Shown here piece by piece: positions 53,706 through 54,027 of a stretch of 64,000 bases of DNA. The stretch is from Candidatus Saccharimonadota bacterium (lineage in GTDB: Bacteria; Patescibacteriota; Saccharimonadia; Saccharimonadales; SZUA-47): positions 193,449-257,448 of the forward strand of contig CP065013.1 in assembly GCA_016700315.1 (NCBI GenBank), read 5' to 3'. The notes beneath the pieces were generated by a model. That model saw only the letters and a program-made list of their open reading frames with translations, did not search any database and was not told where the DNA came from. Each line of letters begins with the position of its first letter. The first letter of the stretch is position 1. A program made the translations under genes and the position numbers.

Positions 53706-54027
53706 GTTAATCTGACTGAGCATATCAACTACTCTGAGAAACTGAGTCCCGCTTTCCTTCATTCCTAACTAGTTTCTCTAGAGGCTAGATGCTGGCTCCC
53801 ATTCTTCAGGCTCCTGATTGACGAGTGTCAAAACGACAATTAGAGTGAGTGACGTGTTTGAAGAAGATTAGTGTAATTCACTAATCTTCTGAGTTGTCAG
53901 AGCATTGTCGTTTTTGACTACGAGACAATAACGAGTCTGAAGCCAGGGCTACTTCTTTGCCTACTTTCTTGTCAGCACAAGAAAGTAGGGCGGTAAAGCT
54001 AGGCCCCAAGGGGGCCGAGCGCCGAAA
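53706..54027 (+). repeat. structured repeat element, copy D (best-preserved long form)
   Basis: 5' module, a ~140-nt long hairpin (53804-53942), a 12-bp perfect hairpin CTACTTTCTTGT-CAGC-ACAAGAAAGTAG, and a GGCCCC-AAG-GGGGCC hairpin. Confidence 0.85.

Follow-up and report, generated by a model that had tools for sequence, protein, structure and literature searches.

BOX elements of the pneumococcus combine conserved ends with a variable interior and adopt a folded form as RNA, and no dedicated transposase is known for them (PMC3049150). [quoted passage not shown] The hairpins of mobile REPINs, which are inherited vertically and depend on a Y1 transposase, show the same kind of compensatory change as is described below (PMC3116915). 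By comparison with these systems, a repeat present in four copies in the chromosomal DNA of a Saccharibacteria-type CPR bacterium seems to behave most like pneumococcal BOX elements and REPINs. The genomes of CPR bacteria and Saccharibacteria are small and streamlined, and no report that describes interspersed structured repeats in such genomes was found in a literature search.

The window, which is the whole 64,000-nucleotide stretch of DNA that was analyzed, carries an rRNA operon, the RNase P RNA, seven tRNAs and the housekeeping genes for IF2, S1, gyrA/B, ThrRS, IF3, L20 and TGT. The homologs of ComM and IF3 that bear source names come from Saccharibacteria or Saccharimonadales. The left edge of the window was extended via exact-protein look-up, and the element was examined in about 75 kb of this one genome. 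A first-pass annotation had reported four copies of a structured repeat, and that observation is confirmed by reading, by alignment and by blastn within the window, with all copies at about the positions first given. Their starts lie near those first proposed, but their 3' ends extend about 15-20 nt further. The copies are 230-340 nt in length, all are intergenic, and they share a 3' tail of the form GGRRnYTAGAnA(A)GCTAR. Their refined limits are as follows.

53706-54042, plus strand: copy D, a chimera
31752-32057, minus strand: copy A
33547-33830, plus strand: copy B
41334-41566, plus strand: copy C

Copies A and D lie 22 kb apart, in opposite orientation and between unrelated flanks, yet blastn within the window aligns them at 95.9% identity over 246 nt. 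Copies B and D are 79.3% identical over 217 nt, and C matches the others only in its 5' module (53 nt, 86.8%) and its 3' module (78-93 nt, about 80%). No fifth copy was found in the window, either by blastn with each copy or with a covariance model of the 3' module.

The element opens with a 5' hairpin that is perfect in C, interrupted by a single mismatch in B and degenerate in D, where it is absent from the minimum free energy (MFE) fold; in A it falls short by 13 nt, with only its first 9 nt present. The linker that follows is ACYAYGAGAAGCT, in which GAGAAGC forms pairs with a GCTTCTT located about 100-200 nt further on and so closes a long rod; the closing-stem strand at the 3' end is GCTTCTTTGCC. 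Beyond the rod lies a perfect hairpin, CCTACTTTCTTGT/ACAAGAAAGTAGG, which measures 13 bp rather than the 12 bp first counted. It is followed by a three-part 3' stem-loop, CGGY...GCT.GGCCCC-loop-GGGGCC.AGC.RCCG (GGCGG...CGCC), and by a tail that ends in CTAR. The parts are placed as follows.

53706-53729, plus strand: 5' hairpin of D, degenerate
to about 53770-53781, plus strand: C-type 5' segment of D (53720-53781 is 82% identical to C)
from about 53771-53785, plus strand: A-type body of D, 96% identical to A
53804-53942, plus strand: rod of D
53960-53989, plus strand: 13-bp hairpin of D
53991-54024, plus strand: 3' stem-loop of D
54025-54042, plus strand: tail of D
31857-31995, minus strand: rod of A
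31809-31838, minus strand: 13-bp hairpin of A
31774-31807, minus strand: 3' stem-loop of A
31752-31773, minus strand: tail of A, which ends on the TAG stop of a convergent 195-aa gene
33547-33573, plus strand: 5' hairpin of B, intact
33602-33723, plus strand: rod of B, with the internal-loop sequences of A and D, compensated stems and another apical stem
33745-33774, plus strand: 13-bp hairpin of B
33776-33809, plus strand: 3' stem-loop of B
33810-33830, plus strand: tail of B
41334-41359, plus strand: 5' hairpin of C, perfect
41366-41480, plus strand: rod of C, shorter and of unrelated sequence
41483-41512, plus strand: 13-bp hairpin of C
41514-41545, plus strand: 3' stem-loop of C, a variant
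41546-41566, plus strand: tail of C

The first-pass annotation had assigned the same four parts to every copy. This does not hold for A, given its remnant of a 5' hairpin, or for C, in which the central hairpin is different, being shorter, unrelated in sequence and without the conserved internal loops. The sequences of those loops are nearly unchanged between A/D and B, as had been described, but they contain a conserved helix, UGACG/UGUCA. The end modules of the family are conserved and the interior is variable and exchangeable, which is the mosaic pattern of BOX elements. By its alignments, D is a chimera in which a C-type 5' end is fused to an A-type body. The motif (T)AGAGAAGCTA, which is present after the 5' hairpin and at the 3' tail, was considered as an insertion target and rejected, as no solo site with hairpin and motif occurs in the window. 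Enrichment of CTAG is weak, with 11 occurrences in 1180 nt compared to about 5.6 expected.

Predicted folds reach minimum free energies of -130.9, -112.5 and -89.5 kcal/mol, with z-scores against dinucleotide shuffles of -7.7, -8.6 and -7.3, respectively. RNAalifold, applied to the A/D-type and B-type copies with their strain variants, gives 88 pairs, 11 of which are changed on both sides. In the comparison with controls, 12 pairs are altered on both sides. Shuffles yield 6.5±1.7 such pairs, with none of the 500 reaching the observed number, and slid controls yield 0-4. Paired cells amount to 96.7%, versus 40-46% with the partner slid. These 12 pairs correspond to the REPIN-type pattern of a hairpin maintained by compensatory substitutions. 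The three compensated pairs first noticed between D and B, GTCAAAACGACAAT/ATTGTCGTTTTTGAC versus GCCAAAAACACAAT/ATTGTGTCTTTTGGC, are correct, as is the outright replacement of the apical stem between these two copies. There is further compensation in the lower rod, which reads GGCTC/GAGCC in A, GGCTC/GAGTC with a G·U pair in D, and AACTC/GAGTT in B, such that a single pair forms the series G-C (A), G·U (D) and A-U (B). One pair of the 13-bp hairpin is G-C in A, B and D and A-U in C, and the 3' module on its own shows little variation.

Conserved loops with covarying stems had been taken as the usual hallmark of a functional RNA or of a structure-specific protein target. The covariation is indeed far above controls, but it does not single out an RNA gene, because the signal derives in essence from a single contrast in evolution, that of A/D-type with B-type copies, because the copies are mosaic or truncated and of narrow range, and because the compensation resembles that of REPINs. 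A search for known families agrees with the first impression that the element belongs to none. At gathering thresholds, Rfam 15 reports no family on any copy, including 6S, HEARO/omega-RNA, group I/II introns, self-cleaving ribozymes and retron RNAs. Even at E<=10 the copies remain without a family match, and over 31500-54300 there are just chance-level hairpin matches, at 17-23 bits versus thresholds of 50-75.

Single-nucleotide polymorphisms (SNPs) among strains (the window, L006, L013, L016, L017, L019 and L021) were classified on the fold of each copy. In robust helices, nine exchange a Watson-Crick and a G·U pair and one produces A·C; four more A·C changes sit in doubtful tail helices. 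For D, B and C, though not for A, the strand listed above folds more stably than the opposite strand, by 9-12 kcal/mol. The transcribed strand had been left undecided by the first-pass annotation, and on these two lines of evidence the listed strand can now be assigned tentatively. The bias among SNPs and the better fold of the listed strand indicate a constraint on one strand in single-stranded form. They point to a fold of that strand that is kept by selection, either as read-through RNA or as single-stranded (top-strand) DNA in the course of mobilization.

The distribution of the family was examined with a 22-base motif from the 3' module, GGCGGNAAAGCTAGG..AGCGCCGA. In the metagenome collection there was one true match, L002, which is identical to copy A and comes from the same species, and nothing real was found in 185,579 species representatives (one genome each) or in viral contigs. 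Matches in L001 and L003-L005 were rejected as chance occurrences in GC-rich coding DNA. Phage and plasmid collections gave no blastn match to the element, and the 3'-module covariance model found no diverged copy in about 45 kb from relatives. With the translated minus frame of the element as the query, the one real match, P0124, led to L017, which has a strain variant of C, and the remaining matches were set aside as low-complexity noise. In the collections searched, the family is restricted to one species and its sister species.

Within the species, contigs from GCA_029781765.1 (98.9% identical over 21.3 kb), from ERZ28613422 and from many Logan runs hold copies at the same sites, and orthologs of copy C are found in L006, L013 and L017. 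Copy D is fixed at its site, as all 10 contigs that come from other samples carry it there and every one breaks inside D; contig ends inside copies are expected for repeats in short-read assemblies. There is no insertion polymorphism, since every sampled strain has all four copies at the same sites. Strains differ from one another by 1.4% within the elements, compared to 1.2% for genes and 0.8% for the remaining intergenic DNA.

The sister species (ComM 82%, IF3 86%) has a diverged element at the site between comM and infC, and its contigs also break inside. The 5' part of that element, ATTAAGTCCAACTGACTGTTAATCATCAAGAGAAGCTATTTCCCGCTC, is recognizably homologous, and in the 3' part GGGCGG and the tail are kept while the sequence of the stem-loop is not. 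In relatives at 64-70% ComM identity the gap between comM and infC is 45-190 nt and holds no element, and the site is empty in L010, L011 and L012. The exact ends of the element are not fixed by these empty sites, because the relatives are too diverged.

On balance, the evidence somewhat favors a new, lineage-restricted family of mosaic, structured, non-autonomous, non-coding interspersed repeats with a top-strand fold under selection. Such a family is probably selfish DNA. It would have spread as copies were inserted between genes in an ancestor shared by the species and its sister species, and the copies may later have recombined with one another, which would have produced the chimeric D and the truncated A, before reaching their present, presumably fixed state. 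A Y1/HUH transposase encoded nearby is the only candidate class of mobilizer seen. Once inserted, the copies might act at most as structured spacers in neighboring transcripts. Against the repeat interpretation, no mobility event was seen, all strains have the same four sites, and the divergence of the elements is no different from that of genes. In addition, the G·U bias and the conserved internal loops of A, B and D would fit a functional RNA equally well. If the DNA is selfish, as is probable, it offers a clean case of compensatory stem evolution with G·U intermediates, and cautions against the use of covariation alone as proof of an RNA gene. A mosaic family of 230-340 nt that breaks short-read assemblies at every copy also matters for assembly and binning. 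Should the copies instead be true expressed RNAs or substrates of the Y1 enzyme, they would provide a handle on the genome dynamics of an uncultured lineage.

The copies could also be paralogous, independently expressed structured small RNAs of about 230-340 nt, with a putative cellular role such as a protein scaffold or partner. The core would consist of the 5' hairpin, the closing stem, the 13-bp hairpin and the 3' stem-loop, and the rod would be a variable peripheral extension. The covarying stems, with their G-C, G·U and A-U series at one pair, the strand-asymmetric SNPs, the very low z-scores, the internal loops that persist while stems change, and the fixation of the copies in all strains are each in line with such RNAs. 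The 5' hairpins of B, C and D are immediately preceded by AT-rich, -10-like hexamers, and a terminator-like hairpin is found about 20 nt past D, but consensus scans revealed no promoter or terminator shared consistently by the copies. Genes for small RNAs are nonetheless considered unlikely here, given the non-uniform build of the four copies, the unconserved sequence of the 3' stem-loop in the sister species, the occurrence in one or two species only with empty orthologous sites in relatives, and the lack of a match in Rfam.

A related proposal is that of an undescribed class of large structured RNA, putatively made from the listed strand in this lineage of Saccharibacteria, with a conserved core and a swappable rod. 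The rod would bear a conserved, G·A-rich internal loop, and the RNA would either have a cellular partner or propagate in RNA form. It is accorded a small probability.

The preferred reading, that of a repeat family, raises the question of kinship with described repeats. The boxA-boxB(n)-boxC elements of Streptococcus are, like this family, intergenic, non-coding and multi-copy. In both, conserved ends surround a variable or exchangeable interior and the predicted RNA form is strongly base-paired; both move slowly or not at all at present, and a dedicated transposase is known for neither. Unlike those of BOX elements, which pair as terminal inverted repeats, the 5' and 3' ends of the present family do not pair; its interior is one long rod and not a series of boxB units in tandem; its host is a CPR bacterium; and a sequence relation to BOX is not apparent. 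The size range, the intergenic position and the long hairpin formed when transcribed are also features of the MITE-like ERIC and Correia elements, which however have terminal inverted repeats and, for Correia, TA duplications, neither of which is seen here. In short, by their defining features the element does not qualify as a classical MITE (including RUP), a REPIN, a PATE, a TnpB/IscB omega-RNA or a member of any Rfam family.

As the first-pass annotation had noted, neither terminal inverted repeats nor target duplications are seen in the four copies. In local alignment, the first 60 nt score 10-13 against the reverse complement of the last 60, compared to shuffle means of 11-13, and the flanks of the four copies have no direct repeat in common, with ends that are uncertain by a few nucleotides. 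The 5' flanks, ATCCC, AAACC, TACCT and ACTGT, show no constant motif across the four copies, with a boundary uncertain by 1-3 nt. Together, the lack of terminal repeats, of target duplication and of a constant flank motif means that no known transposition chemistry is indicated.

The window was first said to contain no transposase, and this needs correction, as an IS30-like gene lies at 12662-13684, though it is unrelated to the elements. It belongs to an IS30-like insertion sequence at 12660-13709 that adjoins the 5S rRNA gene, encodes a 340-aa transposase with HTH_38 and rve domains, and is bounded by 22-nt imperfect terminal inverted repeats, AAGTGCAACACCTACTTCTTTT / AAAAAACCCAAGTGTTGCACTT. 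This transposase was rejected as a mobilizer because the ends of the element show no relation to the 22-nt terminal repeats (AAGTGCAACAC..).

Transposases of the Y1/HUH type work on hairpins in single-stranded DNA. The suggestion that a TnpA-type gene be sought elsewhere in the genome bore fruit just outside the window, where a gene for a 202-aa Y1/HUH transposase (L031 6399-7007, same species) lies about 1.2-1.8 kb to the left. The protein matches Pfam Y1_Tnp (E=2.1e-8, 34.7 bits, cut-off 23) and has HFH and Y..NP motifs; its best NCBIfam match is the REP-associated tyrosine transposase (REP_Tyr_transpos), at 36.9 bits, below the cut-off of 80. On both sides of the gene lie REP-like units of about 40 nt in inverted orientation, GTATAAGG-ACGGA-CCTTATAC with GAAAATGTGA (L031 6357-7056), and the same unit occurs once in the window:

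23935-23973, plus strand: solo REP-like unit, ATATAAGGTCCGTCCTTATAC with AGGGGAAGAAAATGTGAA

This solo unit, between surE and gyrA, belongs to a repeat family separate from the four-copy element. The REP-flanked Y1 gene and the solo unit suggest that the genome has a REP/RAYT-like system. The hairpin that flanks the Y1 gene is unrelated to those of the element, which makes a connection of this system with the element no more than a possibility. No similarity was found between this REP and the element hairpins GTTAACATGC..GCATATTAAC and CCTACTTTCTTGT..ACAAGAAAGTAGG. A half-REP-like sequence, GTATAAGGTACGG, is found together with a GC-rich palindrome, GCTAGTGGCCGGCCTCTAGC, between the comM stop codon and copy C (41205-41330), and both are conserved in L017.

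The element could be imagined as non-autonomous, PATE-like or REPIN-like DNA, mobilized as a top-strand single-stranded form by the adjoining Y1/HUH transposase, with the 5' hairpin as its left end and the 13-bp hairpin and 3' stem-loop as its right end. The first-pass annotation had offered such an IS200/IS605 alternative, and the nearby Y1 gene between inverted REP-like hairpins speaks for it. With IS200/IS605-derived PATEs the family shares its non-coding nature, its hairpins near both ends, and its lack of terminal inverted repeats and target duplications. With REPINs and the REP-RAYT system it shares long hairpins with compensatory changes, as are known from REPINs (PMC3116915), an intergenic, lineage-specific and vertically inherited distribution, and a genome that holds a Y1 transposase gene flanked by REP hairpins. 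The strand-specific constraint on structure would also be expected. Nevertheless, this origin is quite unlikely. The REP at the Y1 gene is a different sequence, of 21-40 nt, to which the arms of the rod are unrelated; the element is not composed of two inverted REP copies and has additional, non-palindromic end modules. Unlike those of PATEs, its two end hairpins differ from each other and from the hairpins at the resident Y1 gene, the 5' flanks of the four copies show no constant target tetra- or pentanucleotide, and the NCBIfam score is below the cut-off. No TnpB is present and there is no relation to an omega-RNA, as HEARO does not match. A TnpB/IscB omega-RNA was also considered. Copy A does overlap the 3' end of a 433-aa ORF, but that ORF has no OrfB_IS605 domain, no Zn-ribbon and no match in Pfam or NCBIfam, and no TnpB/IscB-type gene lies beside B, C or D.

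With respect to their neighbors, the copies of the repeat family abut stop codons and are of mixed orientation. Copy A comes after the 433-aa orphan gene and shares its orientation, B is upstream of that gene and directed away from it, C is situated between comM, which precedes it in the same orientation, and the infC promoter, and D is upstream of an operon for a 102-aa protein, NUDIX and ThrRS, again pointing away. This arrangement allows for cis-acting RNA structures, such as 3'-UTR stabilizers, attenuators or insulators, duplicated with or recruited by gene ends and including a paired 5'/3' arrangement around the 433-aa gene. Because A and B are inverted around one gene, a minus-strand read-through transcript would carry two arms that are about 80% complementary. 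Although A starts in the stop region of the 433-aa gene, C follows comM, and pneumococcal structured repeats are thought to affect co-transcribed genes (PMC3049150), a cis-acting role is very unlikely, as B and D point away from adjacent genes, U-tract terminators are missing, the neighboring genes are functionally unrelated, and relatives lack elements at the same junctions.

The gene between A and B is placed as follows.

32046-33347, minus strand: orphan 433-aa gene, flanked by A and B as inverted copies

The protein has only three homologs (93%, 90% and 40%) among 5.8 billion protein clusters, and no match in Pfam, NCBIfam, PHROG, PADLOC or PDB. It lacks cysteine and has a single hydrophobic segment close to the C-terminus, and its AlphaFold model, at pLDDT 36, is unusable. 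The protein was rejected as a new mobilization enzyme, as it has no domain match and no elements flank its 40% homolog in L015. The block of about 2.1 kb formed by A, the orphan gene and B (31752-33830) is missing in L011, a relative at 64% identity, where the same neighbor genes are 51 nt apart (4947-4998). The reduced 5' hairpin of A, ATTAATATG, is formed by the last codons and stop of the 433-aa gene; the start of the element's 5' hairpin thus falls on the native final codons, ATT AAT ATG TAA (window 32040-32057). The 3' end of the 40% homolog (L015 about 11280-11300), ATTAATGCCCGTTAA, resembles the arm and loop of the C hairpin, ATTAATATGCCCGTT. The likeness between the gene end and the hairpin could be due to chance, to microhomology at an insertion site, or to an origin of the hairpin from the gene end.

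Several other features of the window were observed. A second family of intergenic repeats lies upstream of genes at 28829-29172, 39285-39563, 46685-46765, 56504-56698 and 63771-63988. Its units are short and tandem, (CCCTAGA)n, CTATCAA and CAGTAAACAGTCAT, beside a shared block of about 70 nt (..GTATAAAGTATGAATTTCCCCTC..), and its length varies by strain, with a 115-bp indel at 39413-39528 relative to L006. A 31-nt repeat is found at 59071-59101 and 59196-59226. The rRNA operon (13891-22170, minus strand) is unusual in its short 16S gene (1430 nt) and in the large insertions of its 23S gene. ORFs for LAGLIDADG endonucleases at 14706-15194 and 20060-20449 are apparently in spacers, an Rfam match to group-II-D1D4-1 lies at 20458-20539, and the genes for tRNA-Ala and tRNA-Ile in the 16S-23S spacer are on the opposite (plus) strand, at 19051-19282. 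The 3' half of tRNA-Asp and its terminator hairpin are duplicated 335 nt downstream (59367-59446 and 59701-59781) with 85-94% identity, which resembles the scar that remains after integration of an element into a tRNA gene.
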